Positions 26,361-64,000 of a stretch of DNA of 64,000 bases are shown piece after piece. Both the position numbers and the translations under genes were made by a program. The stretch's first letter is position 1. Every line of letters starts with the position of its first letter. The notes beneath the pieces are model-generated. The model was not told the DNA's origin, ran no database searches, and saw only the letters and a list, made by a program, of their open reading frames with translations. The stretch is from an uncultured Chloroflexia bacterium (GTDB lineage Bacteria; Chloroflexota; Limnocylindria; Limnocylindrales; CSP1-4): assembly GCA_963806265.1 (NCBI GenBank), contig CAWDXT010000027.1, positions 135,214 through 199,213 of the forward strand, in the 5' to 3' direction.

Positions 26361-26572
26361 GCGCGCAGCGTAGCGCGCCGGAAAGCGGTGCGCGGGCGGC
26401 AACACGGCGCTGGACGAACCGGCCCGCGGGGCGCATCATCTGCCACGGCCACATTGGCCGGGGATTTCATCGAGACCGGGCCCACGCATCGGGTCCGGTC
26501 TCATTCGTTCCGGCGCCGTGGACCCCGATCGCGGATCGCCGCGGCCGGTGAGTGCGGGTATCCTCGGCTGCG

Positions 26573-35915: not shown

Positions 35916-35945
35916 GGCCGCCCGAGCGGTAGCATCTAGCGCACC

Positions 35946-48073: not shown

Positions 48074-48092
48074 CTCGATAATCGATGATCAG
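48074..48092. promoter_or_regulatory. Candidate operator C: the same heptad repeat, upstream of the SDR-MBL operon.
   Basis: CTCGATA ATCGATG ATCAG. It shares the exact 12-mer TCGATAATCGAT with operator A (62835-62846) and the exact 11-mer AATCGATGATC with operator B (62900-62910). Confidence 0.6.
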
Positions 48093-48891: not shown

Positions 48892-48956
48892 CCCGGACAC
48901 GAACAGGAGGCTCGGGCAGCGCGCGCGAAGCGTCGCCCGGCGCTCGGAGGAGACAG

Positions 48957-49874
48957 ATGCAGACGAGCATCGCGCTCGAGATGGAGCAGGTCACCGGCAA
49001 GGTGTTCACGAACACCCGGCTGCGGGGCTGCAACCCGAGCTTCGTGACCACCTCGGAGGGCGTCGTCGTGATCGACACGCCGCAGCTGCCGACCAAGGCG
49101 GTCGCCATGCGCCAGCTGGCCGAAACGCACGGACCCATCCGGTACCTGATCAACACCGAGCACCACGTCGACCACATCTTCGGCAACTACTTCTTCAAGG
49201 GCGCCGGCACGGTCGTCAACCACCGGGCCCTCTGGGAGCGGTTCATGGTGGTGTTCCCCGACCTCGACCCGTTCGCCTATGCGTACGAGTCGATCCCGGG
49301 CGACAACCCCAAGGGCACGGATCTCGACGATCCGGGCGCGGTGGACCTGTGGCCGGATCGCGACGAGTACTACGCGGATCCGAACAAGGGCAAGATCGTG
49401 TTCACCGGCGACCTGACGCTCCACGTCGGCGACCACACGTTCAACCTGCTGCACACGCCGGGCCACACCCCCGGCCAGCTCGCCGTCCACGTGCCCGAGG
49501 AGGGCGTCGTGTTCACGGGTGACACGATCTTCTCGGGCTGCCAGACCTGGCTCATGACCTCCGACGTGGCCCAGTGGCTCGACGCCCTGGAGCGGATCCG
49601 GACGCTCGACTTCGAGACGATCGTGCCGGGGCACGGACCGGTGGTCAGCAGGGACTACCTCGACGTCCAGCGCTCGGTGCTCATGGAGTGGAAGACGGCC
49701 GTCGCCACGGCGATCGCGAAGGGGTGGTCACGGGAGGAGACGATGGAGCGCGTCCACTTCCGCGACCGCTTCGGCCCCGTGGACATCGGGCAGGGCTACA
49801 TGATGGATCACATCCAGACCCTGAACGCGGCGTCGCTCTACGACAAGCTCACCGGGGCGATCCCCGGCGCCTGA
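48957..49874 (+). CDS. MBL-fold metallo-hydrolase.
   Basis: VVIDTPQ...LINTEHHVDHIFGN...LLHTPGHTPGQLAVHVPEEGVVFTGD...VPGHG. GGAGGA RBS lies at 48946-48951. Confidence 0.85.
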   Translation: MQTSIALEMEQVTGKVFTNTRLRGCNPSFVTTSEGVVVIDTPQLPTKAVAMRQLAETHGPIRYLINTEHHVDHIFGNYFFKGAGTVVNHRALWERFMVVFPDLDPFAYAYESIPGDNPKGTDLDDPGAVDLWPDRDEYYADPNKGKIVFTGDLTLHVGDHTFNLLHTPGHTPGQLAVHVPEEGVVFTGDTIFSGCQTWLMTSDVAQWLDALERIRTLDFETIVPGHGPVVSRDYLDVQRSVLMEWKTAVATAIAKGWSREETMERVHFRDRFGPVDIGQGYMMDHIQTLNAASLYDKLTGAIPGA

Positions 49875-49922
49875 GCAGGCGGGACCATGCGCCAAGCGGG
49901 TGACTGCGCAGTCGCCCCGGAC

Positions 49923-49938
49923 CTGCCGTCGACGGCAG
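49923..49938. terminator. Perfect 16-bp palindrome CTGCCGTCGACGGCAG between the convergent MBL and PPDK-like genes. Possible bidirectional terminator stem.
   Basis: Read directly. No U-tract is present, so intrinsic-terminator status is uncertain. Confidence 0.35.
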
Positions 49939-49941
49939 CCC

Positions 49942-52119
49942 CTACGCTCGGCCGGCAGCAACCTCGTCGGCCCGGTTTCGGCCGGCCAGTCGAATGAGGT
50001 CCTCGTGGAGCTCGAACCACACCGAGTGGTAGCTGTCCACCCGTGGTGACGCCACGAACCGGCCGTCACCGCCCTGGGCGGCCTCGTTGGCGCGGTCCAG
50101 CCGGGAGCGGTAGATGCGGAGCCGCGCCGGGCCTCCTTCGAGGCCATCGAGCCACGAACCGGCGTCGGCGTGGAGGGCGGCGAGGTCGGCCATGACGCTG
50201 GCGTCGTAGTCGGCGTCGCCGTGGTCGTTGAACACCTGCTCGCCGTCGATCTCGCGCATCTGCCAGGCCGTGACGGTGGCCTTCATGCGCTGGTCCATGG
50301 CGAGGAACGCGTCGAGCGCGGCGGCTGCTCGCTCGGCACCCCAGGCTGCCGCGTCCCCTGCCAGGCGCTCGCCGGCGGCAGACTTGCCGCGATCGGTCAG
50401 CCGGAACGAGCCGGCGGCTGCCTCCGCGAGCCCATCTGACACCAGGTCGTCGAGGAGTCCGGTCGCGGTTGCCTCGTCGCCGCCGATCGCGGCCGCGAGC
50501 GCGTCGGGCGCCGCATAGCCCTTGATCGCGAGCGCGCGAATGGCGGCGTCAAGCGGGTCGCCGTCGATCGCGCCCGGCTCGTCGGGCGCGGCCGTTGTCC
50601 GCGGGCTCACGGCGGCTGGCTCGGTCGCGGAGGCTGGCTGCTCGGTCGCGGAGGCCGCATCGATCTCGATCCCGAGCTCACGGGCCCAGGCCAGCAGCGT
50701 GGCCGCCTCGGGCACCACCTCGACCCGGCCCCCGACCGCGCCCTCGAACACGTCGCCGGTTGCGCCATCGATCGTGATCGTCTCGCCCGCGGCGAGACGC
50801 CGCCCGTCGATCTCGATGTGATCTCCCGACACCACCAGGTGAGAGGCTCCCACCACCGCGGGGATCCCCCAGCCGCGTGCAACCACCGCCGCGTGGCTGG
50901 CGAGGCCGCCGCTCGCGGTGAGGATCCCGGCCGCTCGCGCCATGCCGTGCACGTCGTCGGGCGAGGTCTCGGCCCGGACGAGGACCACGGCTCGGCCGGC
51001 GTCGGCGGCCTCGATCGCGCCATCGGGCGTGGTGACGATCTCGCCCGTGGCCACGCCGGGCGATGCCGGCAGGCCCCTGGCCAGCGGCACCGCATCATCG
51101 CGGCCGATCATCGTGGTCGGCGGATCGGCGAGGATGGCGGCGACACGCCGCACCGCCTCGTCGCGCGTCACCGGGAGCTCGTCATCCTCGGCCATGTCGC
51201 GCGCGATCCGGAGCGCAGCCTGGGGGCTGCGCTTGCCGACCCGGCACTGGAGCATCCACAGGCGCCCGTGCTCGACCGTGAACTCGATGTCGCACAGGTC
51301 CGCGTTGTGCCGCTCGAGCCGCGCCGCGTGCGCCCGCAGCTGCGCTGCCACGTCGGGCATCCGCTCGTCGAGGACCGCGAGCGGCTCGGTCTGATGGGCT
51401 CCCGCCACGACGTCCTCGCCCTGCGCATTGAACATGAAGTCGCCGTACGGCTCCGGGGCACCGGTAGCCGGGTTGCGCGTGAACAGGACCCCGGTGCCCG
51501 AGTCCACGCTGCGGTTCCCGAACACCATGGCCTGGACGGTGACCGCCGTGCCCAGCTCGTCCGGGATCCCCTCCCGCTGGCGGTAGGTGCGTGCCCGGGG
51601 GCTGTTCCAGGACCGGAACACGGCCTCGATCGCGCCCCGCAGCTGGACCCACGGGTCGGCCGGCACGTCGGCCACGCCCACGATCTCGCGGTACATGGCC
51701 TCGAACCGCTTGCGGCAGTTGGCGGCGAACTTCGGGCTCGACGCCCGATCGGCCAGACCGTCGGTGGTCGCGTCGTTGAGCCCGAGGTTGAGGATCGTGT
51801 CCATCATCCCCGGCATCGACACCGCGGCCCCGGAGCGCACGCTGACCAGCAGCGGGTCGGACGGGTCACCGAATCGATGGCCCACCACCTGCTCGATGTG
51901 CGTCATGTGCTCGCGCAGCTCCGCATCGAGGCCATCCGGCCAGCCATGCGCGAGGTACTCGTTGCAGGCGTGGGTGGAGATCGTGAACGCCGGCGGCACC
52001 GGCAGCCCGAGCTCGGCGGCCATGACCGACAGGTTCGCTGCCTTGCCTCCCAGCAACGACCTGACCTCCGCGAAGGTCATGTCGTCGAGGCGGTCGTCGC
52101 AGTCGAACACGTAGGTCAC
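49942..52119 (-). CDS. Pyruvate,phosphate dikinase-like protein. It has the ATP-grasp nucleotide domain and the swivel phospho-His domain, but the PEP/pyruvate TIM-barrel is replaced by an unrelated domain of about 200 aa.
   Basis: LLGGKAANLSVMAAELGLPVPPAFTIST...LLVSVRSGAAVSMPGMMDTILNLGLND...GTAVTVQAMVFGN...GTGVLFTRNP...GEDVVAG...IEFTVEHGRLWMLQCRVGKR. The swivel is TASGGLASHAAVVARGWGIPAVVG (His about residue 409). Residues about 520-725 (LAIKGYAAPDALAAAIGGDEATATGLLDDLVSDGLAE...WFELHEDLIRLAG) have no PPDK barrel motifs. Confidence 0.8.
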   Translation of the reverse strand: MTYVFDCDDRLDDMTFAEVRSLLGGKAANLSVMAAELGLPVPPAFTISTHACNEYLAHGWPDGLDAELREHMTHIEQVVGHRFGDPSDPLLVSVRSGAAVSMPGMMDTILNLGLNDATTDGLADRASSPKFAANCRKRFEAMYREIVGVADVPADPWVQLRGAIEAVFRSWNSPRARTYRQREGIPDELGTAVTVQAMVFGNRSVDSGTGVLFTRNPATGAPEPYGDFMFNAQGEDVVAGAHQTEPLAVLDERMPDVAAQLRAHAARLERHNADLCDIEFTVEHGRLWMLQCRVGKRSPQAALRIARDMAEDDELPVTRDEAVRRVAAILADPPTTMIGRDDAVPLARGLPASPGVATGEIVTTPDGAIEAADAGRAVVLVRAETSPDDVHGMARAAGILTASGGLASHAAVVARGWGIPAVVGASHLVVSGDHIEIDGRRLAAGETITIDGATGDVFEGAVGGRVEVVPEAATLLAWARELGIEIDAASATEQPASATEPAAVSPRTTAAPDEPGAIDGDPLDAAIRALAIKGYAAPDALAAAIGGDEATATGLLDDLVSDGLAEAAAGSFRLTDRGKSAAGERLAGDAAAWGAERAAAALDAFLAMDQRMKATVTAWQMREIDGEQVFNDHGDADYDASVMADLAALHADAGSWLDGLEGGPARLRIYRSRLDRANEAAQGGDGRFVASPRVDSYHSVWFELHEDLIRLAGRNRADEVAAGRA

Positions 52120-52183
52120 GGAAGGTCCTCCTCGCTGTGCGCACGACGCCGGTCGCCGACGGCCCCGTGCCCGGACACAGGCG

Positions 52184-53228
52184 TCACGGGTGGACGATGA
52201 TCTTGATCGCGTGCTGCCCCCGGTCGCCGAAGGTCTCGATCGCCGCCGGGTAGTCGGCGAGGTCGAAGGTGTGCGTGATCAGCTCGCGAACGCGCATCCG
52301 GCCCCCGACGATGAGCGGCATCACGTGGCGCATCTCGCCCGCCGACGCACGCGACCCGACCAGCTCGAGCTCGTCGAGCACCAGGCGCTGCAGGCCAAGC
52401 CCGACGTCGGTGGTCGGGATGCCCACCACGCGCGCAGCGGCCACCACGACGCAGCATGTCGAGCCCCCAGCGGATCGTCTCGGGCACCCCGGCGCACTCG
52501 AGGACGACGTCGACGCCCAGGCCACCGGTGCGTTCCCGGATCTCGGCCGCGGGATCGCCGGCCTCCGAGTCCACGATCTCGAAGCCGAGCTCGGCCGCCC
52601 GGGACAGTCGCCAGCCGCGGCCCACGACGATCACGCGCCCGGCCCCGCGAATGCGAGCCGCGTCCGCGGACAGCAGCCCGATCGAGCCGGCGCCGATGAT
52701 CGCGACCGTGTCACCCGGCCGGTTGCCGCCGCGGTTGGCGACGTGGAGCGCGATCGACGCCGGATCGACGAGGGCGCCCTCGTCGAACGAGAGCTCGTCG
52801 GGCAGCGGGAACACCGCCTTCACGCCGTGCACCACGTAGGTCGCGTCGGAGCCCTGGACGTTGTGCCCGTACTGGCGGTGCAGCCCTGGCTTGCCGTAGC
52901 TCTCGCACAGGTTGTAGCGGCCTTCGACGCACATCCGGCACACGCCGCACGCGTCGTGGCTGGTGCCCGCCACCCGGTCGCCGACCTTCCAGCCGTATCG
53001 CTCCGCGCCCGGACCCAGCGCGACCAGCTCACCGGCCCACTCGTGGCCCGGGATGAACGGGAACGACGGCGGCCAGAAGCCCGGATAGTCGCCGTGGATC
53101 AGGTGGACGTCGGTGCCGCAGATCGACACCGCCCGAACCCGGGCCATGACCTGGTCGCGGCCGGGGCTGGGGACCGGGACGTCCTGGATCTCGAGCCGCC
53201 CGGGCCCGGCGACGACCAGCGCCCGCAT
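52184..53228 (-). pseudogene. Zinc-dependent medium-chain alcohol/polyol dehydrogenase with one frame break near 52440.
   Basis: MRALVVAGPGRLEIQDVPVP...ICGTDVHL...GHEWAGELV...CGVCRMCVEGRYNLC...IIGAGSIGLL. It continues as VVGIPTTDVGLGLQRLVLDELELVGSRA...ITHTFDLADYPAAIETF in ORF 52184..52525. Confidence 0.85.
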
Positions 53229-53307
53229 CGTGCCCGGCGTGGGAGTTCCGGGCGTTGGGGTCTTGGGCGTAGGCCCTTCGGACGCGCTGGCTCCGGGCGT
53301 GGTCACG

Positions 53308-55572
53308 TCACGCCACCTCGCCCGTGCGGTCCCGCTCCTGGATGGCTCGCCACACGCGCTCCGGCGTGAGCGGCAGGTCACGGATCACGGCGCCGCACGC
53401 CTCGCGCACCGCGGCGGCCACGGCCGGCGCGGTGCACAGCAGCGCACCCTCGCTCATCCCCTTGGCACCGAACGGCCCCGGCCCGTCGGCGTTCTCGACC
53501 GTCTCGCTGACCATCTCGAGCGGCAGGTCCATCGAGGTCGGGATCCGGTAGTCGATGGCGCCCAGGTTCCGGATCCGTCCGGCATCGTCGTAGATGTAGT
53601 GCTCCATCAGGGTGTGACCGAGGCCCATGATCGCGGCCCCCTCGTCCTGCATCCGGACCTGGAGCGGGTTGATCGAGCGCCCCACGTCGGACACCGTCAC
53701 GTGCTTCACCAGCGTGACGTCGCCGGTGTCCTCGTCGACCCTCGCCTCGATCGCGGTGCAGTTGAACTCGAAGAACGCCGGAGCGCCGCCCAGCGGGTGA
53801 CCGGGCTCCGCCTCCTTGCGCGCCTCGCCGTTGCCGATCAGCTCGCCGCCCAGGCGACCGAGCCCCGGCTTGAGCACCTCGAGCACGGTGAGCTCCCGGT
53901 CCGGCAGGTGAATCACGCCACCCTCGACCGTGATCTGCGATTCGTCGAGCTCGTGGAGCCGCGCCGCCATCGCGCGCAGCTGTGCCTGGATCGAGCGGCA
54001 GGCGCTCAGGACGGCATTGCCCATGAGCACGGTCGAACGGCTGGCCGAGGTCTGCTGGTCGTAGGGCACGACCGCGGTGTCGCCCATGACCACCGTGACC
54101 CAGTCGAGCGGGGCGCCCAGCTCCTGGGCGGCGATCTGGGCCAGCACGGTCCGGGCCCCCTGGCCCATGTCGGAGGTGCCTGCGAACACGACCACGCTGC
54201 CGTCGGCGAGCAGCCGGACGGTCGAGTACGACAGGCCGGTCGTCGGGCCCGACTTGATGCCCACGGCGATCCCCCGCCCGTGGCCTGCCGGCAGGGGCGT
54301 GTCCCAGCCGATCAGCTCGGCTGCCTTCTGAACGCTCTGCTCCCACTCGCCGTCCGCGGGGGTGTCGAACGGGATGAAGGCATCGCCCCTGTGCGCGAGG
54401 TTCATCAGGCGCAGCTCGAGCCGGTCGATGCCCAGGGCGCGGGCACCCTCGTCGAGGTTCGACTCCACGCCCCAGTTCACCTGCGGGTAGCCAAAGCCGC
54501 GGAACGCGGTCGAGGGCGTGGTGTGCGAGAGCACGCTGCGGGCGGCGATCCGGGCGGCGGGCACGTTGTACGGGCCGCAGGCGGGATAGCTGCCCTTGCC
54601 CACCACCCGGTCCGCGATGTCCGCGTAGGCCCCGATCAGGTAGTCGGCCTTGATGTCCTGGAAGGCCAGCGTGCCGTCCGCCTGGAACCCGGTGCGGACG
54701 CGGACCTCGCACGCGGCGCGACGCACGGCCTGGAACGTCTGCTCCAGGGTCAGCACGAGGCGGACGGGTCGACCGGTGCGAAGCGCGGCGAACGCCACCA
54801 GCGGCTCGTACTTCGCGTGCTGCTTGCCGCCGAACCCGCCACCCGGGTCGGGAGCGATCACGCGCACCCGCGACAGCGGCAGGCGGAGCACCTCGGCGAT
54901 CACGCGCTGGAGCCAGTTCGGATGCTGGATCGAGCTCCAGACGCGGATGCCGTCCCCGTCCGGCGCGGCCATGAACGCGTGCGGCTCGATGGCGAACTGG
55001 GTGACCATCGGGAAGGTGTAGCTGTTGTCGATGACGAGGTCGGCCGTCGCCGCATCGACATCGCCCCATCCGACGCGGTGCTCGCGCAGGACGTTGGTCG
55101 CGGCCAGCGGATCGTCGGGACGCAGCGCCGGGTCCTGGACGAGCGGCGCATCCGGCGCGAGCGCGGCCGCGACCGTGAACACCGCCGGCAGCTCCTCGTG
55201 GTCGACCGCGACCAGGCCGGCCGCCTCCTCGGCCGCGTCTCTCGTGTCCGCGACCACGATCGCGACCGGGTCGCCGTGGTACTTGGTCTCGCCCACGGCG
55301 ATCACGGGCCGATCGGTGAACTGGGGACCGAAGCGCGGCACCGGCTGGGGCAGGTCGCCGGCGGTCAGGACCGCCCGGCAGCCGGGCACCCGTAGCGCAG
55401 CGGCGGTGTCGATCGCGTTGATACGAGCCCGGGCGACGTCGAGCGTCACGAGCTTCGCCTCGAGCATGTCCGTGGGGCGGATGTCGGCAACGTACGGCTG
55501 GGCGCCGGTCACCCGGCCGATCCCGCCGACCCGGTTGGGCGAGCTGCCGACGCGACCCTCGAGCACGCTCAT
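53308..55572 (-). CDS. Xanthine dehydrogenase-family molybdopterin-binding large subunit (CoxL/aldehyde-oxidase-like).
   Basis: RVTGAQPYVADI...AVGETKYHGDPVAIVVA...DPGGGFGGKQ...FRGFGYPQ...GTSDMGQGARTVLAQIAA...PFGAKGMSEGAL. There is no CODH-type VAYRCSFR loop. The start ATG 55572 overlaps the small-subunit stop. Confidence 0.9.
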   Translation of the reverse strand: MSVLEGRVGSSPNRVGGIGRVTGAQPYVADIRPTDMLEAKLVTLDVARARINAIDTAAALRVPGCRAVLTAGDLPQPVPRFGPQFTDRPVIAVGETKYHGDPVAIVVADTRDAAEEAAGLVAVDHEELPAVFTVAAALAPDAPLVQDPALRPDDPLAATNVLREHRVGWGDVDAATADLVIDNSYTFPMVTQFAIEPHAFMAAPDGDGIRVWSSIQHPNWLQRVIAEVLRLPLSRVRVIAPDPGGGFGGKQHAKYEPLVAFAALRTGRPVRLVLTLEQTFQAVRRAACEVRVRTGFQADGTLAFQDIKADYLIGAYADIADRVVGKGSYPACGPYNVPAARIAARSVLSHTTPSTAFRGFGYPQVNWGVESNLDEGARALGIDRLELRLMNLAHRGDAFIPFDTPADGEWEQSVQKAAELIGWDTPLPAGHGRGIAVGIKSGPTTGLSYSTVRLLADGSVVVFAGTSDMGQGARTVLAQIAAQELGAPLDWVTVVMGDTAVVPYDQQTSASRSTVLMGNAVLSACRSIQAQLRAMAARLHELDESQITVEGGVIHLPDRELTVLEVLKPGLGRLGGELIGNGEARKEAEPGHPLGGAPAFFEFNCTAIEARVDEDTGDVTLVKHVTVSDVGRSINPLQVRMQDEGAAIMGLGHTLMEHYIYDDAGRIRNLGAIDYRIPTSMDLPLEMVSETVENADGPGPFGAKGMSEGALLCTAPAVAAAVREACGAVIRDLPLTPERVWRAIQERDRTGEVA

Positions 55573-56135
55573 TGGTCCAACCCGTCCGCGCTGCTGCGCG
55601 CGCCGGCACGTGCGCCACCGGCGGTCGCGGCGGCGTCGACGGCCATCGTTCTGGAGGGGTCCACCGAGCCCGCAGCGACGGCCTGCACGGCCTCGGTGAT
55701 CTGCTCGTACCCGGCGCACCGGCACAGGTTGCCGGCCAGCCCTTCCTGGATCTGGTCGACCGTCGGGTCGGAGACGCGGCGCAGCAGGTCGTCCGCGGCC
55801 ATCAGCTGGCCCGGGATGCAGAAGCCGCACTGGGTAGCGCCGTAGTCGAGGAACGCCTGCTGGATCGGGGACAGCTGCCCGTCGGGACGGGCGAGGCCCT
55901 CGACCGTGGTGATCGCCCCACCGTCGGCTTCCACCGCGAGGACCAGGCACGAGTCGACGATGTGGTCGTTGAGCCGGACGGTGCACGCCCCGCACTCGCC
56001 GACCAGGCAGCACTCCTTGGTCCCGGTCAGCGCGAGGTCGTCGCGCAGGACCTCGAGCAGGGTATGGTGCGCGGCCACCTCGAGCGAGCGGACGCGTCCG
56101 TTCACGGTCATCTCGATCGGGATCAGCTCGGTCAT
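55569..56135 (-). CDS. (2Fe-2S)-binding small subunit of the molybdenum hydroxylase.
   Basis: TGTKECCLVGECGACTV...CLVLAVEADG...TQCGFCIPG...LCRCAGY. Confidence 0.9.
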   Translation of the reverse strand: MTELIPIEMTVNGRVRSLEVAAHHTLLEVLRDDLALTGTKECCLVGECGACTVRLNDHIVDSCLVLAVEADGGAITTVEGLARPDGQLSPIQQAFLDYGATQCGFCIPGQLMAADDLLRRVSDPTVDQIQEGLAGNLCRCAGYEQITEAVQAVAAGSVDPSRTMAVDAAATAGGARAGARSSADGLDQ

Positions 56136-57004
56136 CGTGCTCGCTCCTCGGCCGCCAGCCGGCTGGTCGCTGTCGCCAGCGCCCGCCAGCCGAGCACGCG
56201 CAGCATCGCGAGCCGGTAGTCGGGGCCGGCCCGCATCGAACGTGGGGACGGGCTGGCGTCGACGAACATGCGCTCCAGGATCGAGGCGCGGTCGACATCG
56301 GGCGCCGATGGGTCCGCGAGGACGCCCGTCGTGTCGGTGACCAGGAGCGGTCGCGGTCCGACGCTGCCGTAGGCGAGTCGCGTGACCCCGGCCGCATCGA
56401 CGCCACAGGCCAGCGTGACCGACGCCAGGTCGTGCCCACGGCGCCGCGTCCGCCGCTGGTGCGCCGAGCCCATGCGCGGCCAGTCGAGCGGCAGCTCGAT
56501 CGAGGTGACCAGCTCGCCACGCCCGAGCGTGGTCACGCCCGAGCGCACGAACAGCTCGTCGATCGGGATCCTGCGGCGGCCGTCGGGACCCGTCACCACG
56601 ACCTCGGCCCCGTAGACGAGCAGCGAGGGCGCGGTGTCCGCGGCGGGCGACGCGTTGCACAGGTTTCCGGCAAGCGTCGCGCGATTTCGGATCTGGACGG
56701 AGCCGACCACGGCGGCCGCCTCGGCCAGCGCCGTGAACCGGCGCCGGACCCGCACGTCGGCAGCGATGTCGGTCATCACCGTGGTTGCCCCGATCACCAG
56801 CCGCCCGTCAACCTCGCGGATCGCCGGATCGAGCTCGCGTATGCGCTTGACGTCGATCACGACCGACGGGCGGGCCGAGCCGTCCCGAAGCCGGATGATC
56901 AGGTCCGTGCCGCCCGCGATCAGCCGTGCGTCGGTGCCGTGCTCGGCGAGCAGGGCCACGGCGTCCGCCATGGCCCTGGGTCGCTGGTAGCTGAACGCCC
57001 GCAT
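56132..57004 (-). CDS. FAD-binding medium subunit of the molybdenum hydroxylase (CoxM-like).
   Basis: ARLIAGGTDLIIRL...IRNRATLAGNLCNASPAADTAP... Confidence 0.9.
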   Translation of the reverse strand: MRAFSYQRPRAMADAVALLAEHGTDARLIAGGTDLIIRLRDGSARPSVVIDVKRIRELDPAIREVDGRLVIGATTVMTDIAADVRVRRRFTALAEAAAVVGSVQIRNRATLAGNLCNASPAADTAPSLLVYGAEVVVTGPDGRRRIPIDELFVRSGVTTLGRGELVTSIELPLDWPRMGSAHQRRTRRRGHDLASVTLACGVDAAGVTRLAYGSVGPRPLLVTDTTGVLADPSAPDVDRASILERMFVDASPSPRSMRAGPDYRLAMLRVLGWRALATATSRLAAEERAR

Positions 57005-57015
57005 CGCCGCCGCTC

Positions 57016-57909
57016 CTACAGGATCCGATCGACCTCATCCAGGAGAACCTGGGGGGTCGCCGCGCGGATGAAGAAGAACGGCCGCTCGCAGAAGCTGGCC
57101 ACGAAGGCCGCGCGCCGCTGGCGCAGATGATCGTTGTCGAGCATCGGGATCACGTGCCCGGGCGCCAGCAGCTCGTTGGTCAGGAAGTAGTTCTGGAGGC
57201 TGTGCAGGAACTGGAACTGCGCCTCGAACGGGATCAGCTCGTTGGCCGCGGCATCGAAGTTGCCGTCGATGGCGGGCACGATGACCAGGTCGATGTTCGG
57301 CGCCTCGCCCTCGTACATCGCCCAGGTCGGCATCACCGGGCCCCAGAACTTCTCGACGCCCTTGTTGGGTGCGGCCTTGTCGGAGCGCTCGGTGCCCTCG
57401 GTGCGCTTGACGAGGAACGGCTCGACCGAGCCCATCACCGCCCGGCCGTCCTCGCTGACGACCGTGGTCTCCGAGGCAACCTGGAGCCCACCGCGAACGC
57501 CGGCCTCGATGAGGCCCATCGACTTGCCATGGTTGGACTCGCCGCCCAGGAACAGGAAGGTCCTGCCGCGGTACTGGACGGCTGCGCTGTGCGAGGGGTG
57601 GAGGCCCACGTCCTCCATGCGCAGCGCGAGGACCGCCACGATCACCTTCTGGAGGGGGCCCGCGGGCCAGGGCCCGGTGAACGTCACCGTCCGCCCGTCG
57701 TAGCGCACCGCCTTCTCGCCGTCCTGGTGCCACGTGATGTCCGGGGCCGCCAGCGTGATCTCGGGCGAGATCCGAACGTCGGCGAGGCGGTAGTTGAGGA
57801 ACGTCAGGTCGTCGAGCACGTGGTCACGGGGCGCGCCGCCGTAGACGTCCACGCGGAGGCGTGCGGCGCCGGCCGAGAACTCCTCCGTCAGTTGCAGCTG
57901 ATCGTTCAT
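57016..57909 (-). CDS. HPr kinase/phosphorylase C-terminal-domain-like P-loop protein.
   Basis: LHPSHSAAVQYRGRTFLFLGGESNHGKSMGLIEAGVRGGLQVASETTVV lines up with the HprK-type pattern H-A-S-x-V...G-x-S-G-x-GKS...G...L-V-x-D-D. The start ATG 57909 is chosen inside ORF 57016..58167. Confidence 0.6.
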   Translation of the reverse strand: MNDQLQLTEEFSAGAARLRVDVYGGAPRDHVLDDLTFLNYRLADVRISPEITLAAPDITWHQDGEKAVRYDGRTVTFTGPWPAGPLQKVIVAVLALRMEDVGLHPSHSAAVQYRGRTFLFLGGESNHGKSMGLIEAGVRGGLQVASETTVVSEDGRAVMGSVEPFLVKRTEGTERSDKAAPNKGVEKFWGPVMPTWAMYEGEAPNIDLVIVPAIDGNFDAAANELIPFEAQFQFLHSLQNYFLTNELLAPGHVIPMLDNDHLRQRRAAFVASFCERPFFFIRAATPQVLLDEVDRIL

Positions 57910-57952
57910 GCGGTCCTTTCGGGGTCGGGTTGCGGGTCGACGGGCACGCAGA

Positions 57953-58705
57953 TCATGGGGCGGGCGCCGCCTGCCGGTCTCGCCGGTCACCGGCGGCCGG
58001 CCTGCGCGGCGGCGACGGTGGTCGCTGTGGCGCGAGCGGGGCCGTGGCGGCCGAGTCCCAGGCCGCCCGAAGACGGTCTGCCGTGGTGGCGAAGTGCTCG
58101 CGATACGTGCGATCGGCCTCGATCGGATCCCGGCGCCGGAGCGCGTCCAGGATCGGCTGGTGCTCATCGGCCACCGAGCGACGTTCCCCGCCCGGGACCG
58201 CGAGCGTGATGTACGTGCGTGACGACGGCTCGAGCGTGCGCCAAACGCGGTTCAGAGTCTGGTTGCCGGACAGGACGATCACGCGCCCGTGGAACTCGGC
58301 GTCGGCCGCCGCCTCGGCCCGCGCATCGCCGGCGTCGGCGGCTGCTCGCATCGCGGCGATCATCGCCTCGAGCCCGTCGATGTCCTTCTGTGTCAGATGC
58401 GGGATCGCGAGTCGAGCGCCGAGCGACTCGAGCTCGGCACGGATCGCGAACCCCTCGAGCAGCTCGTCCGTCGTGGGACGGCGGACGCGGGCTCCCCGGA
58501 AGGCCGTGGTCTCCACGACCCCCAGCGCCTCGAGGTCACGTAGTGCCTCGCGGACGGGCGCCTGGCTGGTGCCCAGGTCACGGGCGACCCGCGTCTCGAC
58601 GATCCGGTCTCCGGGCGCATAGCGGCCGTCGATGATCGCCTCCAGCAGGTGGTCCTTGACCTGGTCGCTCAGGACGCTGCGTGAGATCGAGGGCTGGGGG
58701 GGCAT
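57953..58705 (-). CDS. GntR-family transcriptional regulator (FadR/FCD subfamily).
   Basis: LSDQVKDHLLEAIIDGRYAPGDRIVETRVARDLGTSQAPVREALRDLEALGVVE (wHTH), followed by an all-helical FCD-like domain (EFHGRVIVLSGNQTL...ADEHQPILDAL). Confidence 0.85.
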   Translation of the reverse strand: MPPQPSISRSVLSDQVKDHLLEAIIDGRYAPGDRIVETRVARDLGTSQAPVREALRDLEALGVVETTAFRGARVRRPTTDELLEGFAIRAELESLGARLAIPHLTQKDIDGLEAMIAAMRAAADAGDARAEAAADAEFHGRVIVLSGNQTLNRVWRTLEPSSRTYITLAVPGGERRSVADEHQPILDALRRRDPIEADRTYREHFATTADRLRAAWDSAATAPLAPQRPPSPPRRPAAGDRRDRQAAPAP

Positions 58706-58715
58706 GATCGGCGCC

Positions 58716-60497
58716 CTAGGAACCGACGCCCACGAGCGGGCGGTCCGGAGCCGTTGACAGGATGGTGACGACACCCTTCCTGGGGTTGCTGGCGTCGACC
58801 CGGATCCGGTCCCCGGTCTTGATGCGCGTGGTCCCCATCGAGGTGCCGACGACGGCAGGGATGCCGTACTCGCGCGCCAGGACGGCCGGATGGGACGCGG
58901 TGCCGCCGGCGTCGGTCACCACCGCGATGATCTTGCCGTACAGCACCTGCCAGGCCGGGTTGGTCATCTCGCACACCAGGATCTCCCCGTCCTGCAGGCC
59001 GTCGAACTCGCTCTCGGACAGGACGACGCGGGCGACCCCTTCGATCACGCCGGGAGACCCGGCGATGCCTTCGACCGTGTCCTGCTGTCCTTCGGCCGAG
59101 CGATGGAACTTCTCGGGGAAGCCCCACAGACCGAGGTACGGGAACGCCAGCTGGGTCTCGGTCGCCGTGCCGACCCAATCGCGCGGACGCGTCCGCTCCG
59201 CCTCGGCGCGCCTGGCCCGCGCCGCAGCGACGATCGCGCGGCCGTCGATCCCGGTCGGATCGCCGATGAACGCTCGCAGCTCGTTGTAGTGGAACATGAT
59301 CACGTCGTCGGGGCGGTCGAGCACCCCCATGTCGACCAGCTTCTCGCCGAGCGCGATGAGCACCAGGCGGACGTGCGCGTTGGCACCCTGGTCGATGTAG
59401 AAGTGATGGTCCGGCGTGAGCGGCGCCATCCGAAGGTTGATCTCGTTGGCGGCGCGCATCTCCTCGAGCGCCTCACCCTCGAGCCCCTCGAGGATCTCCG
59501 TGGCCGCCGCGTCGATGTCGGCCTTCAGCTTCGCAACGGCGCGCGGATAGTCGTAGCCCGACGCGTACTGGTCGCGGACGAGCTGGATCACCGGCGTCAT
59601 GTCCTCCCGGAAGCTGGGGAAGATGAACTCGTGGCTCCAGACGGCGTGCCAGCCGAACTCGTTCTGATACGGCACCACCCGCTCGTCGATGAAGCGGCGA
59701 CCCCTGTCGCTGGCCTTGAGCGCCGGGATGATCTCGACCGCGGACGGGCTCCCGAACGCCGCCGCGAGCTCGGCGTCCGCCTTGACCTCCTCCTTCATCT
59801 CCCACAACGCCCGGATCTTGTCCCAGTTGCGGTCGCTCGCCGATGCCTGCAGCCGGCCCAGGAGGACCTCGTCGATGCTGCCATGGGTCTTCTCCATGAC
59901 CGCCCGGAGGTTGAGGGTGGCGCTCAGCTGCGCGAAGTTCAGCATCCAGTGGATCTTCCAGTGGCGATCGTGCATGTCGATCGCGTCCTCGAGCAGGACC
60001 GCGACCTCCGCGAGGCTCATCTCGTCCTTTCGATCGAGCATGCTCTCGAGGTAGTCGAAGTTGCGCTGCATCTCGGGCACGAACCGCGTCCGCCACCACT
60101 CGACGAACCGTTGGCCGTAGACGGGCAGGACCGCGCCGAGGTAGGCCCCGATCCGTCCCGCGTACGCATCGTCCCGGGGCACGATCGCCCGAGTGGCAAG
60201 GTCGTACTCCTGGGTCACGACCTCGAGGCCGTTCTCGGCAGGGATCGCCGCCGTGTACAGGTAGCCGTTGACGTTCTTGTAGATCCAGTCCGTCGCGAAC
60301 GGCGTCCCGAAGCGCCGGAACATGTGGTCGCAGCTCAGCCACCAGCCACCGATGTCCTCGTACATCGGGCTCAGCGGCTTGGGGCAGTGGAGATCGTCGT
60401 AGACCCAGAACAGGAGCTGCTCGGTCTCCGACGACCATTCGATGGGGAACGACGCATCCCCCAGGAACTGGTCGAGGACTTTCTCCTTCAGGGGCAC
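58716..60497 (-). CDS. PEP-utilising-enzyme mobile (swivel phospho-His) domain protein with a helical N-terminal region of about 450 aa and unknown function.
   Basis: C-terminus GVIEGVARVV...GEILVCEMTNPAWQVLYGKIIAVVTDAGGTASHPAVLAREYGIPAVVGT. The N-terminal region has no ATP-grasp motifs. The overall layout recalls the His-carrying subunit of phenylphosphate-synthase-type enzymes. Confidence 0.7.
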   Translation of the reverse strand: MPLKEKVLDQFLGDASFPIEWSSETEQLLFWVYDDLHCPKPLSPMYEDIGGWWLSCDHMFRRFGTPFATDWIYKNVNGYLYTAAIPAENGLEVVTQEYDLATRAIVPRDDAYAGRIGAYLGAVLPVYGQRFVEWWRTRFVPEMQRNFDYLESMLDRKDEMSLAEVAVLLEDAIDMHDRHWKIHWMLNFAQLSATLNLRAVMEKTHGSIDEVLLGRLQASASDRNWDKIRALWEMKEEVKADAELAAAFGSPSAVEIIPALKASDRGRRFIDERVVPYQNEFGWHAVWSHEFIFPSFREDMTPVIQLVRDQYASGYDYPRAVAKLKADIDAAATEILEGLEGEALEEMRAANEINLRMAPLTPDHHFYIDQGANAHVRLVLIALGEKLVDMGVLDRPDDVIMFHYNELRAFIGDPTGIDGRAIVAAARARRAEAERTRPRDWVGTATETQLAFPYLGLWGFPEKFHRSAEGQQDTVEGIAGSPGVIEGVARVVLSESEFDGLQDGEILVCEMTNPAWQVLYGKIIAVVTDAGGTASHPAVLAREYGIPAVVGTSMGTTRIKTGDRIRVDASNPRKGVVTILSTAPDRPLVGVGS

Positions 60498-60576
60498 CGG
60501 TGCTACCTCCTTGCCTGCCTTGCGTCGTCCCGGCGACGTGTTCCCAGCCGTTGGCCAGTGCGTTCCCGGCCGTTGG

Positions 60577-61416
60577 TCAGTGCGCCGGGGGCGCGGCGCG
60601 CGTGATCATCTTGAAGCGCTGCATGTTCTCGGTGATCGCCACCTCCGTCGGGAGCCGCTCCATGCTCGAGGCGCCGAAGAACCCGGCCACACCGTTCGTA
60701 TGGTCGAGGATGAACTGCGCGTCATCCGGCTCCGCGATCGGGCCACCGTGGCAGAGCACGATGACGTCCGGGTTGACCGCCACCGCAGCATCCCGGATCG
60801 CCTGCACCCGCTCGGCCGACGCCCCGAGCGTGAGCGCGGTGGTGGCACCGATCGCGCCCTTGGTGGTCAGGCCCATGTGGGCCACGACGACGTCGGCCCC
60901 TGCCCCGGTCATCGCCGTCGCCTGCTCCGGGTCGAACACGTAGGGCGTCGTGAGCAGCCCGGCGGCATGCGCCGCTCGGATCATCTCGACCTCGAGCCCG
61001 TAGCCCATGCCGGTCTCCTCGAGGTTCTGGCGGAACTGCCCGTCGCACAGGCCAACCGTCGGGAAGTTCTGGACGCCGGAGAAGCCGACCCGTCTGATCT
61101 CTTCGAGGAACACCGGCATCAGCCGGAACGGATCGGTGCCGCACACGCCGGCCAGCACGGGCGTCTCGCGAACGACGGGCAGCACCTCGCCCGCCATCTC
61201 CATCACGATCGCGTTGGCGTCGCCATAGGGCATCATCCCGGCCAGGGATCCCCGGCCGGCCATCCGGTAGCGACCCGAGTTGTAGATGATGATCAGGTCG
61301 GCGCCGCCGGCCTCGGCACATTTCGCCGACAGCCCGGTCCCGGCACCCGCACCCATGATCACGCCGCCATCGGCGAGCGTCCTCCGCAGCCGCGCGAGCG
61401 CCTCCTGGCCGGTCAT
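60577..61416 (-). CDS. PEP-hydrolase-like TIM-barrel protein (TIM-br_sig_trns family; Tm-1 C-terminal-domain homologue).
   Basis: [51 protein letters not shown]...[12 protein letters not shown]...[11 protein letters not shown]...[12 protein letters not shown] 61416 overlaps the upstream stop (ATGA). Confidence 0.75.
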
Positions 61417-62672
61417 GCTCCTCCTCCATGGATCGAGGCCGTGGCCGGATGAGTCTCCGACCACGCCCGGTACAGCTCGTCGAGCCGGTCCGCCATCGCT
61501 CCTGCAAACGCCGGGTCGTTGATGTCGGTCGCCATCTCGACCACCTCGACGTCCCCGCGGAGACCGGCCCTGAGCTCCCTGACCAGCGCCGCATCGGCGG
61601 CCGGGTCGTGGAACGGCGCATCGGGCACGTCGATCATCGACACGCCGGCCGTCGGGATGAACACCGCCAGCGGACCGCCCGCGGCGTTGAGCTTGCGGGC
61701 CAGGATGCGACCCAGCTCGGCACATTCCGCCTCGGTGGTCCGCATCAACGTGACGGACGCGTTGTGGCGATACAGGTTGCGGTCGCGGAACCGGTCGGGG
61801 ACCGTGTCGAGCGGCCCGAAGTTGACCATGTCCAGCGCGCCCAGCGACACCACCTGGGGCAGCCCCAGCGCTCCGGCGGCCTCCAGCCGGTCGGGCCCGG
61901 CCGACAGCACGCCGCCCACGAGCTCGTCGGCCAGCTCGGTGGTCGTGATGTCGAGCGCCCCCGTGATGAACCCGGCGCGCATCAGCGCCTCCATCGCCTG
62001 GCCACCGGCACCCGTGGCGTGGAACACCAGCACCTCGTAGCCGCGCGCCTCGAGGAGCTCGCGCGCGACCGTGACGCATGGCGTCGTGACGCCGAACATG
62101 GTCGCGCCGATGAGCGGCCTGCCGGGAGCCTGCGTGCCGCGCGACGATGCCGAGCGTGCCATGCCTGCGATCGCGGCCGCGGCATTGTCCAGGATCCGCT
62201 CGGAGATCGCGTTGAGGCCCGCGATATCGACCACCGAGTACAGCATCGCGATGTCGCTGGTGCCGACGTAGGCGCGCGTGTCGCCCGAGGCCATCGTCGA
62301 CACGAGCAGCTTCGGGACGCCGATCGGCAGAGCCCGCATCGCGGCCGAGATGAGCGACGAGCCTCCCGACCCACCGAGACCCACGATCCCGTCGAGCCGA
62401 CCCTCGGCGTGGAGCCGTCGCGCAACCTCCACCGCGCCCCGGGTCATCGCCTCGACGGCCGGGCCACGGTCGCCCGCCGCGGCCAGCGCTGCCCGGTTCT
62501 CGCCCGCGGCGGCTGCCACCGCGTCGGCCGTGATGTCGGCACCCGTCGATGACCCCATCACGCCCGCGTCGACGACGAGCGCGTCGCAGCCGAGCTCGCG
62601 GATCCGGTCGCGGAGGAACTCGTGCTCGGCAGCCTTGGTGTCGAGCGTTCCGAGGACCACGACGACCGCCAT
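61413..62672 (-). CDS. UPF0261 family protein (Tm-1 N-terminal-like ATP-binding domain).
   Basis: [24 protein letters not shown]...[34 protein letters not shown]...[12 protein letters not shown]...[16 protein letters not shown]...[16 protein letters not shown]. Confidence 0.75.
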
Positions 62673-62833
62673 TCGCCACCTTTCCCCGCACGATCCGGCC
62701 CGGCCGGGCCCCGCCTGCGGCACACGTTCGGGCACCCTCGCAGCGCCTGCGCCCCCGGCCCCGGGCACCGAACGCAGCCGTCCGGGCCGGGTGCCTTGCT
62801 GCCGGGTCCTCGGCGCGCTGGTACCCTCGTGAC

Positions 62834-62856
62834 ATCGATAATCGATTGTCGATAAC
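62834..62856. promoter_or_regulatory. Candidate operator A: three tandem 7-bp units built on the palindromic hexamer ATCGAT.
   Basis: ATCGATA ATCGATT GTCGATA AC sits in the 307-bp divergent intergenic region between the UPF0261 operon (minus) and the transaldolase gene (plus). It is AT-rich in a very GC-rich background. Confidence 0.6.
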
Positions 62857-62897
62857 GGTAGGTCGGCCGGCCCGGTCAGTCAAGCCGAACCGGGCGT

Positions 62898-62926
62898 ACA
62901 ATCGATGATCGATGATACCCGATCGG
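62898..62926. promoter_or_regulatory. Candidate operator B: the same heptad repeat.
   Basis: ACA ATCGATG ATCGATG ATACCCG ATCGG, 42 bp downstream of operator A. Confidence 0.55.
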
Positions 62927-62979
62927 CGTCACCCGGAAGGCTGGCCGGTCAGCCGCACGCGAGCGCTGAGGTGCCTTCG

Positions 62980-64000
62980 ATGAGCCCAGCCCCGACGGCA
63001 GCAGGAAGCCCCCTCCTGCGCATGACGCAGACGACCCCGACCCAGTACTGGAACGACTCCTGTGCCGCGGACGACCTCGAGTACGCGATCGATCGCGGGG
63101 CGACCGGCGCCACGTCCAATCCCAGCATCGTGCTCGAGGTGATGCGCTGCGAGCGCGAGCGCTGGGAACCTCGCGTCTTCGAGCTTGCGGCCGCGCACCC
63201 CACGTGGTCCGAGGTTGAGCTCGCGTGGGCCATCAGCGAGGAGATCGCGGTCCGCGCCGCCGGCGTGCTTGCGCCCGTCTTCGAGCGAGCGGAACACCGG
63301 GCCGGGCGGCTGTCATTCCAGGTGGACCCGGCCGACCACCGGGATCCCGATCGCATGCTCGAGCAGGCCGTCCGGTTCGCTGCGCTGGCGCCCAACATCC
63401 AGGTCAAGTTCCCGGTGACGGCTGCCGGCCTCGTGGCGATCGAGGAGGCAACCGCGCGCGGCATCAACATCACGGCCACGGTCTCGTTCACGGTCGCCCA
63501 GGCGATCGCCGCCGCCGAGGCGGTGGAGCGTGGCCTCGACCGGCGCCCGGGCGGCGGCGACGACGGCCATGTGATGGCACCGATGGTCGTGCTCATGATC
63601 GGCAGGCTCGACGACTGGATGAAGGTCCTGGTCGAGCGCGACGCGCTGGCCGTTCATCCGGCGGCGCCGGCGTGGGCCGGGATCGCGGTGTTCAAGCGAG
63701 CGTATGCGCAGTTCCGCGAACGCGGCTATCGGTCGCGTCTGCTGGCGGCTGCCTATCGACACCGGCTCCACTGGACCGAGCTTGTCGGCGCGGACGCCAG
63801 CCTCACGCTGACCCATGCCTGGCAGGTGCGCTTCAATCGCAGCGGAATCGATCCCGGATCCGCGGATCGACATCCCGGTGGATCCGGCGCTCGTCGACGA
63901 CCTGTACCGCCGCGTCCCCGACTTCCGCCGCGCCTACGACCCGGACGGCATGACGCCGGACGAGTTCGAAGGCTACGGTGCGAGCGCCCGGACGCTGCGT
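62980..64000 (+). pseudogene. Transaldolase-family protein. The 3' end lies outside the window and there is one frame break near 63855.
   Basis: This open frame is not in the ORF track because it has no stop inside the window. MTQTTPTQYWNDSCAADDLEYAIDRGATGATSNPSIV...LSFQVDP...IQVKFPVTAAGLVAIEEATARGINITATVSF. After GIDP the homologous text (RIDIPVDPALVDDLYRRVPDFRRAYDPDGMTPDEFEGYGA) continues in another frame. Confidence 0.75.

Follow-up and report, generated by a model that had tools for sequence, protein, structure and literature searches.

A cluster of ten genes in a genome fragment of an uncultured Chloroflexia bacterium (contig CAWDXT010000027.1) may well encode a catabolic module that combines a molybdenum (Mo) hydroxylase with an ATP-dependent small-molecule dikinase. 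A hydroxylated (hetero)aromatic compound would be both O-phosphorylated and hydroxylated by this module. We put the probability of this reading at about 0.55. The fragment analyzed, called the window below, is 64,000 nucleotides long, and the cluster lies on its minus strand at 49942-62672. The reading builds on the domain content of the proteins, their invariant catalytic histidines, the co-conservation of the genes and the fusions of one domain, and on published work in Ensifer, where the dikinase genes are genetically required. The order of the steps, the class of the substrate and the roles of two of the proteins (P297 and the PF09370 barrel) are what we infer.

The ten genes are tightly packed or overlapping on one strand, as the initial annotation described, and a check of the sequence and its open reading frames gave the same boundaries. 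Three pairs of genes overlap by 4 bp at ATGA: UPF0261 and the phosphoenolpyruvate (PEP) hydrolase-like gene (61416-61413), the flavin adenine dinucleotide (FAD) and 2Fe-2S subunits (56135-56132), and the 2Fe-2S and Mo subunits (55572-55569). The other gaps in the cluster are 10-79 bp. The G+C content of the window is 69-73%. This composition would suggest an actinobacterial origin, which we rejected in favor of a Limnocylindria-like Chloroflexota genome, as the close relatives all belong to Chloroflexota. A profile search with Pfam confirmed every domain named in the initial annotation except that of the HprK-like protein. The features of the cluster are as follows, with lengths in amino acids (aa); PPDK stands for pyruvate, phosphate dikinase, PEPCK for PEP carboxykinase and TIM for triosephosphate isomerase.

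61413..62672, minus strand: UPF0261 (Tm-1/MarK family) ATP-binding protein, 419 aa; Pfam PF06792 and PF23189
60577..61416, minus strand: PEP-hydrolase-like TIM barrel, 279 aa; PF09370, Pfam E 7e-131
58716..60497, minus strand: 593-aa substrate-binding and swivel-His subunit (HpeH/PpsA/CreH architecture); PF00391, PF27448
57953..58705, minus strand: GntR/FCD transcription regulator, 250 aa; Pfam GntR and FCD
57016..57909, minus strand: P297, 297-aa P-loop protein with a PEPCK/HprK-type fold; predicted fold
56132..57004, minus strand: FAD subunit of the Mo hydroxylase, 290 aa; PF00941 (FAD_binding_5) and PF03450 (CO_deh_flav_C)
55569..56135, minus strand: 2Fe-2S subunit, 188 aa; PF00111 (Fer2) and PF01799 (Fer2_2)
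53308..55572, minus strand: molybdopterin (Mo) subunit, 754 aa, xanthine dehydrogenase family; PF01315, PF02738 and PF20256 (Ald_Xan_dh_C, MoCoBD_1 and MoCoBD_2)
53231..53297, minus strand: scar of a deleted PF04199 cyclase gene, between the Mo subunit and the alcohol dehydrogenase; comparison with locus L005
52184..53228, minus strand: Zn-dependent alcohol dehydrogenase (Zn-ADH), frameshifted at ~52431; ADH_N and ADH_zinc_N
49942..52119, minus strand: 725-aa truncated PPDK with ATP-grasp, swivel His409, linker, and winged-helix and helical domain; PPDK_N and PEP-utilizers

The genes of the cluster are co-conserved in related genomes. We searched the window proteins by tblastn against 80 loci, the best genomic relatives of the 593-aa protein, and counted only loci long enough to judge (n=52 for the core genes and the ADH, n=44 for UPF0261 and PF09370). 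All 80 loci are from metagenome-assembled genomes (MAGs) of Chloroflexota, mostly Limnocylindria. The FAD, 2Fe-2S and Mo subunits were present in 52 of 52 loci and the 725-aa gene in 51 of 52, with one partial copy besides. GntR was found at the same position in 50/52 loci, and P297 also in 50/52. The ADH was less frequent (42/52), followed by UPF0261 (19/44) and PF09370 (14/44, each time beside UPF0261). A PF04199 cyclase gene also separates the Mo subunit from the ADH in most of the related loci. From this presence and absence over the related loci, we divided the cluster into a core and an accessory part. The core, which is almost invariant, consists of the phosphotransfer proteins (593-aa and 725-aa), GntR, P297 and the FAD/2Fe-2S/Mo subunits. 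The accessory part comprises the ADH, the cyclase and the UPF0261/PF09370 pair.

The common gene order is the 593-aa gene, GntR, P297, FAD, 2Fe-2S, Mo, the cyclase and the ADH where present, and the 725-aa gene. The 725-aa gene is inverted or moved in loci L008, L011, L070, L072, L079 and L084, yet stays within a few kb. Two sequence subtypes were seen among the loci, with P297 either ~85% or ~59% identical to the P297 of the window. The MAG MFD04716.bin.3.834 carries two full copies of the cluster, one on CAWBGT010000005 (L029) and one on CAWBGT010000027 (L034); paralogues are often found among catabolic genes.

A syntenic cluster is present on the megaplasmid of Thermomicrobium roseum DSM 5159 (L085, NC_011961.1 56118-72461), beside a formate dehydrogenase operon. 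Its order is a Peripla_BP_6 ABC transporter, UPF0261, PF09370, GntR, a cyclase, a 323-aa PPDK_N protein with the ATP-grasp only, a DUF4202-like protein, the FAD subunit, an FAA hydrolase, an ABM monooxygenase, a 564-aa homologue of the 593-aa protein, the Mo subunit and the 2Fe-2S subunit. Identity to the window proteins is 66% for UPF0261, 76% for PF09370, 44% for GntR, 45% for the 593-aa homologue and 48% for the 2Fe-2S subunit. The T. roseum cluster contains no P297. A canonical ATP-grasp subunit stands there in place of the 725-aa protein of the Limnocylindria.

The initial annotation knew of no characterized pathway with this composition. The 3hpd cluster of Ensifer adhaerens HP1 is such a case, as its hydroxylase depends on two genes, one PPDK-like and one PEP-utilizing, and it includes a neighboring GntR gene. 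In this strain, HpdA1-4 turns 3-hydroxypyridine into 2,5-dihydroxypyridine only together with orf9, annotated as 'pyruvate-phosphate dikinase', and orf10, annotated as 'PEP-utilizing protein mobile subunit'; the GntR gene is orf7 (bioRxiv 10.1101/2020.01.08.898148). Knockout of either orf9 or orf10 abolishes growth, their role 'remains to be clarified', and 3hpd-like clusters have been reported in Actinobacteria, Rubrobacteria, Thermoleophilia and Proteobacteria (bioRxiv 10.1101/2020.01.08.898148). The two clusters are alike in having a xanthine dehydrogenase-family Mo hydroxylase beside PPDK-like, PEP-utilizing and GntR genes, orf9 and orf10 being likened by annotation. They differ in several respects. 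HpdA has four components, with a separate SRPBCC subunit that carries a signal peptide, and the genes of the maleamate pathway (hpdBCDE) follow. Neither an SRPBCC subunit nor maleamate-pathway domains were found in the cluster proteins or the scanned flanks of the window. The window cluster, for its part, adds P297 and an extra domain fused to the PPDK-like protein. The proposal of a functional tie between the phosphotransfer proteins and the Mo enzyme is supported by the comparative genomics above and, by analogy, by the Ensifer genetics.

All 80 loci belong to one class-level lineage, so that the genes might be neighbors merely by inherited synteny, with no functional coupling. This explanation is extremely improbable. 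The flanks vary while the core persists, and the 725-aa gene relocates yet remains adjacent. The same ensemble recurs in Thermomicrobia (T. roseum) and, according to the published survey, in Proteobacteria and Actinobacteria, and the Ensifer 3hpd case contradicts an absence of coupling. The cluster is clearly real and strongly conserved in soil Chloroflexota, more than expected by chance.

The 593-aa protein resembles the substrate-binding subunits of two-component small-molecule dikinases. Pfam placed PF00391 (PEP-utilizers) at its C-terminus (residues 502-570), and the precomputed annotation has a PF27448 Rph_4th domain ahead of this swivel domain. Residues 681-859 of rifampin phosphotransferase (5fbs) align to residues 377-570. 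The catalytic His536 lies within GGTASHPAVLARE, a motif found in 119 of 120 homologues. HpeH, PpsA and CreH are the substrate-binding/His subunits of two-component dikinases and are ~45% identical to each other (PMC12167813). The 593-aa protein shares the architecture of the H/A subunits of HpeHI, AcvAB, CreHI and PpsAB(C), that is, a rifampin-binding-like domain and a C-terminal swivel His in GGxxSH. The ATP-grasp sits on a second protein in all of these, and those systems are found in catabolic clusters. Dikinases of this type phosphorylate a phenolic substrate at the expense of ATP through a phospho-His, with AMP and Pi as products. By NCBIfam scores, the 593-aa protein does not belong to the HpeH/CreH/PpsA sequence family; PRK08296 spans its full length below cutoff.

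The partner subunit and the context are unlike those of the known systems. No ATP-grasp-only I/B subunit lies beside the 593-aa gene, and the sole ATP-grasp in the window is that of the 725-aa protein. The partner would thus be the N-terminal two-thirds of a PPDK that itself carries a swivel His and has an adaptor fused to it, and not an ATP-grasp-only protein of ~40 kDa. The downstream biotin carboxylase, P450 or UbiD carboxylase of the known systems is missing here. We also considered the cluster of Rhodococcus opacus B4 as carrying a true CreHI orthologue and did not adopt this assignment; the HpeHI paper calls CreI PEP-synthase-like.

The 725-aa protein is likely the ATP-grasp donor for the 593-aa swivel-His protein, a role that the initial annotation had proposed for it. 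It matches PPDK (1ggo) up to about residue 528 (E 9e-123). Pfam detected PPDK_N and PEP-utilizers only and no PEP/pyruvate barrel, in agreement with the domain composition first described. His409 lies within GGLASHAAVVARG, and this motif is present in 119 of 120 homologues. The protein passed NF004531, the NCBIfam model of the Rv1127c/VadK family, with 525.2 bits against a cutoff of 456; the match covers its first 470 residues and profile positions 18-463 of 534. The PPDK of a Rubrobacter plasmid proved to be of the full-length housekeeping type.

VadK (Rv1127c) is a truncated PPDK that autophosphorylates on its swivel His, and it co-purifies with its operonic partner Rv1126c (~200 aa) so tightly that separation needs 2 M NaCl (PMC13400623). 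The 725-aa protein is like VadK in passing NF004531, in lacking the PEP/pyruvate barrel and in keeping the catalytic His. It is unlike VadK in its context, which is a Mo-hydroxylase cluster and not the methylcitrate cycle. A second difference is that the ~200-aa partner is seemingly fused to the C-terminus here, judging from plasmid homologues. Rv1126c would then belong to the family of the C-terminal domain, and the 725-aa protein would be a fusion of VadK-like and Rv1126c-like parts.

A disordered linker, a winged helix and a helical domain make up residues 470-725, the last two spanning about 520-725. The structural model of this C-terminal domain had a predicted local distance difference test (pLDDT) value of 87. 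The winged helix is weakly related to DtxR/MntR (E 0.0025) and the helical remainder had no PDB match; a fold search with the domain gave local winged-helix matches alone (E >= 0.07). A stand-alone 206-aa protein of Diaphorobacter shares 34% identity with the domain (E 4e-26), and the gene for this protein sits between those for a PEP-utilizing enzyme and a truncated PPDK. Homologues of ~200 aa adjoin truncated PPDKs in Mycobacterium branderi, M. avium, several Rhodococcus, Novosphingobium and Streptomyces; in M. branderi, a PEP-utilizing enzyme also adjoins. Many of the stand-alone genes, including that of Diaphorobacter, are on actinobacterial and proteobacterial plasmids. Two other fusions were found: R. 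opacus B4 has the domain at the N-terminus of a PEP-utilizing enzyme, and Rhodococcus pLW3 has it joined to an AMP-binding protein. From these alternative fusions, we argue for the domain as a physical bridge between the truncated PPDK and its acceptor protein. The 205-aa DUF4202-like protein of T. roseum was tried as a further relative and is unrelated to both the C-terminal domain and the Diaphorobacter 206-aa protein. The copies of the domain are at the following positions.

Window 49945-50562: C-terminal winged-helix/helical domain of the 725-aa protein
L089:9306-9926 and L092:7983-8585: stand-alone ~200-aa homologues
L091 (5′ end of the gene for a 793-aa PEP-utilizing enzyme) and L087 (3′ end of the AMP-binding gene): fused copies

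The family of the 725-aa protein allows another role. It could be a VadK-like regulator whose winged helix binds DNA or partner enzymes and tunes flux, with the 593-aa protein phosphorylated from another source. This would fit its membership in the VadK family, the control that VadK itself exerts on methylcitrate-cycle enzymes by interaction, the relation of the winged helix to DtxR/MntR, and the 'MarR family' annotation of homologues of the C-terminal domain. We consider such a role unlikely. Neither the cluster nor the window has an ATP-grasp gene other than the 725-aa gene, and the equivalent cluster of T. roseum has a plain ATP-grasp subunit. The fusion of the C-terminal domain to a PEP-utilizing enzyme in R. 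opacus B4 and the need for both the 'PPDK' and the 'PEP-utilizing' genes in Ensifer also argue for a donor. The initial annotation had raised the possibility that the 593-aa and 725-aa proteins are ordinary members of a characterized enzyme. This is so in part: the former has the PpsA/HpeH/CreH architecture and the latter passes the VadK model, but neither comes with a known substrate.

The assignment of the FAD, 2Fe-2S and Mo subunits (57004-53308) to the xanthine dehydrogenase family agreed with Pfam. FAD_binding_5, two 2Fe-2S domains, and the hammerhead and MoCoBD_1/2 domains together gave the three-subunit pattern of this family. The closest solved structure to the Mo subunit was the alpha subunit of 4-hydroxybenzoyl-CoA reductase (1rm6, 329 bits), followed by quinoline 2-oxidoreductase (225 bits), and the NCBIfam model of E. 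coli-type XdhA was about equally close. The 2Fe-2S subunit scored 182 bits against XdhC_XDHase (cutoff 217). Glyceraldehyde dehydrogenase models gave 321, 130 and 166 bits. None of the hydroxylase subunits reached an NCBIfam equivalog cutoff.

Each of the two nearest enzymes shows likeness and difference. HcrA of 4-hydroxybenzoyl-CoA reductase (HcrABC) is the nearest solved structure of the Mo subunit. However, the 4Fe-4S insertion of the HcrABC-type FAD subunit is absent from the 290-aa FAD subunit, which has 2 Cys, and TIGR03194, TIGR03195 and TIGR03193 were below cutoff. The subunit sizes and the best NCBIfam matches resemble XdhA, XdhB and XdhC of E. coli-type XdhABC. Unlike in xanthine dehydrogenase, the position of the xanthine-binding Glu802 (GGGFGGK-E) reads Gln by eye.

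The UPF0261 protein matched Tm-1 (E 4e-95, 322 bits) and MarK (9mpy; E 2e-71, 244 bits) in the PDB. The family was regarded as one of unknown function in the initial annotation, which is outdated: MarK (Saro_1862), a member of it, is an ATP-dependent phenol kinase that can functionally replace AcvAB/HpeHI, so that these are interchangeable phenol kinases (PMC12624787). Gly195, His219 and His304 of MarK hold the phenolic ring and its oxygen (PMC12624787), and their equivalents are kept in the window protein. Its D11-T12-K13 corresponds to the ATP motif D14-T15-K16 of MarK. The likeness to MarK and Tm-1 thus extends to both UPF0261 domains, the D-T-K motif and the His at the phenolic oxygen. The acetovanillone pocket of MarK is replaced: T196, F283, I285 and H348 are V, M, N and I here, as in Tm-1. 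Also unlike MarK, the protein has no carboxylase genes (acvCDEF) nearby and is paired with the PF09370 barrel.

The initial annotation proposed that the stand-alone barrel serves as the acceptor site. This role cannot be obligatory, as the barrel is absent in 30 of the 44 loci with the whole core. In its full form, the proposal has the PF09370 barrel replace the missing PPDK barrel in trans, in one machine with UPF0261, two swivel-His carriers and the ATP-grasp. In the window and in roughly one locus out of three, the pair immediately precedes the 593-aa gene, and it lies inside the T. roseum cluster at 66-76% identity, far above that of the other genes. By structural classification, PF09370 is in the same PEP/pyruvate-domain superfamily as the PPDK barrel. 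As a core mechanism, we nevertheless regard it as distinctly improbable. The pair is missing from the same 30 loci, PF09370 always occurs with UPF0261, which in the case of MarK is a self-sufficient ATP-dependent kinase, and no barrel is required by the known two-component dikinases. In Chloroflexi bacterium RBG_16_70_13, just a 170-aa UPF0261_C fragment is found ahead of the 593-aa gene (L001:9401-9913), and UPF0261 without PF09370 occurs in several other loci, which suggests that the pair is decaying.

P297 had been called an HprK-like P-loop protein. The P-loop (GGESNHGKS, residues 122-130) was found, and the predicted fold places the protein in the PEPCK/HprK superfamily. It matched nothing in Pfam, NCBIfam or the PDB sequences, and PEPCK is closer than HprK. 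The AlphaFold2 model (pLDDT 79, predicted template modeling score 0.80) gave ATP-PEPCK as the best Foldseek match (E ~1e-6, TMq 0.45) and HprK/P as the second (E 3e-4 to 5e-3). A marginal profile match to residues 177-236 of Thermus thermophilus PEPCK (E 0.12), confined to the K/H/P-loop segment, aligned K88 and H107 with the Mn ligands of PEPCK. K88, H107 and the P-loop residues are invariant in alignment A1. P297 thus resembles ATP-PEPCK and HprK/P in predicted fold and P-loop and matches neither by sequence. It has about half the size of PEPCK (297 aa, compared with ~530 aa for the PEPCK_ATP domain), and its likeness to HprK/P, a weaker fold match, is in the P-loop only, with no HprK signature.

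The P297 family is tiny: 187 matches, mostly fragments, were found among 1.84 billion representatives. By sequence, it is a lineage-restricted family with no annotation. Long P297 'fusions' proved to be frameshift merges with the adjacent GntR/FCD or FAD/FeS/Mo genes, and P297 is unrelated to the hypothetical proteins of the T. roseum and Diaphorobacter clusters. From the modeled fold, P297 may be a dephosphorylating or phosphate-recovering enzyme, a small-molecule kinase, or a regulator of swivel domains in the style of PDRP or HprK.

The Zn-ADH gene (53228-52184) has the Zn-ADH domains ascribed to it and is not intact. It is 1045 nt long, not a multiple of 3, and is split over two frames. 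When compared with the intact orthologue in L005, the closest related locus, it has a 1-bp insertion at ~52431 in a GCGCGCG run, so that it is either a pseudogene or the result of an assembly error. The intact orthologue scored best against models of IolM (scyllo-inosose 3-dehydrogenase) and threonine dehydrogenase, below cutoff. The cyclase gene has been deleted in the window; L005 has a 299-aa cyclase (L005:17233-18132), of which the window keeps the first codons only (GTGACCACG).

In most loci, a divergent operon lies upstream of the cluster, with genes for a transaldolase, a Peripla_BP_6 ABC transporter, a cupin and a split transketolase (L001:620-9118; L005:4191-7672). The transaldolase gene (62842-63996, plus strand) is the only gene of this operon inside the window. 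A CoA-acylating methylmalonate-semialdehyde dehydrogenase was found in 17 loci. Past the 725-aa gene are a short-chain dehydrogenase/reductase (SDR) gene (48085-48891, plus strand), found beside the cluster in 20 related loci, and a gene for a metallo-beta-lactamase (MBL)-fold hydrolase (48930-49874, plus strand), found there in 12; the latter is a candidate phosphoesterase. A beta-eliminating lyase gene of the tryptophanase/tyrosine phenol-lyase family (26552-27961, plus strand) is located 22 kb from the cluster. Lyases of this kind release indole or phenol, possible substrates of such pathways. The window also carries a B12-dependent methionine synthase gene (MetH-type, 987 aa; 35940-38903, plus strand) and a stand-alone homocysteine S-methyltransferase gene (46972-48006, minus strand). 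No riboswitch or other RNA was found in the window in an Rfam scan. Consensus scans of 49000-63500 gave no promoter or terminator, which is unsurprising at 70% G+C.

These flanking genes bear on the class of the substrate, which could also be a sugar, polyol or cyclitol. The dikinase would then act on an aliphatic hydroxyl, the Mo enzyme would be an aldehyde oxidoreductase, and the products would pass to transketolase and transaldolase. Rifampin phosphotransferase and glucan-water dikinase do phosphorylate aliphatic hydroxyls. The divergent transaldolase/transketolase/cupin/ABC operon, the best match of the ADH to scyllo-inosose 3-dehydrogenase, the methylmalonate-semialdehyde dehydrogenase in 17 loci and the glyceraldehyde dehydrogenase scores given above would all be explained. 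To our knowledge, however, every characterized two-component dikinase acts on phenols. Transketolase and transaldolase are absent from the T. roseum cluster, which has an FAA hydrolase, an ABM monooxygenase, VOC and a cyclase. Aromatic acids are also among the compounds carried by Peripla_BP_6 transporters, and the ADH is dispensable, being absent in 10 of 52 loci. We therefore consider a sugar-like substrate rather doubtful.

For a hydroxylated (hetero)aromatic substrate, the module could work as follows. The ATP-grasp of the 725-aa protein would bind ATP and phosphorylate its own His409, His536 of the 593-aa protein, or both, with the fused winged-helix/helical adaptor docking onto the 593-aa protein. 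The 593-aa protein would hold the small-molecule substrate in its rifampin-phosphotransferase-like domain and hand the phosphoryl group to a hydroxyl of the substrate. The FAD/2Fe-2S/Mo enzyme would hydroxylate the same molecule. A possible rationale is that an O-phosphate donates fewer electrons than a phenolate, and a ring carbon would therefore be open to nucleophilic attack by Mo-OH. The phosphate would be removed later, with P297, PF09370 and the neighboring MBL hydrolase as candidates. The operon would be under GntR/FCD regulation, and the ADH, the cyclase-family hydrolase, the UPF0261 kinase and the PF09370 barrel would be exchangeable accessories that tailor side reactions.

Several observations weigh against this mechanism. 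No curated dikinase family has a cutoff that the 593-aa protein comes near; with its best NCBIfam match, PRK08296.1-5, it reaches 171 bits where 578 are required. The two dikinase genes adjoin each other in HpeHI; here, they sit at the two ends of the cluster with 6.6 kb between them, and the Mo subunit is only 36% identical between the window and T. roseum. VadK is described as a regulatory histidine kinase that regulates methylcitrate-cycle enzymes through interaction (PMC13400623). The divergent transaldolase/split transketolase/ABC operon and the IolM-like ADH point to sugar or cyclitol chemistry. Unlike 3hpd, the cluster has neither a ring-cleavage dioxygenase nor an SRPBCC subunit, and no substrate can be named from it. 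No phosphorylated intermediate was seen in Ensifer (bioRxiv 10.1101/2020.01.08.898148), and for this reason the dikinase might, by analogy, have the enzyme or a cofactor as its target and not the substrate.

A more specific version of the mechanism, which we offer as speculation with a low chance of being right, is a phosphate protecting-group cycle. The VadK-like/Rv1126c-like/HpeH-like relay would O-phosphorylate a hydroxy-(hetero)arene for the Mo center. P297, as a mini-PEPCK, would then return the phosphate of the aryl or enol phosphate to ADP (or carboxylate the compound), recovering ATP that a phosphatase would waste. If this were true, VadK-type truncated PPDKs would generally be ATP-donor subunits of small-molecule dikinases, not stand-alone regulatory kinases.

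The pairing of a Mo hydroxylase with a dikinase was already known from the breakdown of 3-hydroxypyridine in Ensifer, where the mechanism is unexplained. The need of HpdA for PPDK-like and PEP-utilizing proteins has been known since 2020 and is not understood. What is new here is the VadK-type fusion as ATP donor, the lineage-specific P297 with a PEPCK fold, and the recurrent but optional UPF0261/PF09370 pair. One operon thereby unites four recently characterized or enigmatic families, namely VadK-type truncated PPDKs, HpeH-type carriers, UPF0261/MarK and PF09370. The domain fusions provide a testable hypothesis for VadK-like proteins and their ~200-aa partners outside mycobacteria. T. roseum DSM 5159, a cultured thermophile with a syntenic version of the cluster, offers a practical model for experiments. 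Among soil Chloroflexota, the coupling is both widespread and ancient. If phosphorylation gates Mo-dependent hydroxylation, this would be a new principle for the activation of electron-rich heteroaromatics.

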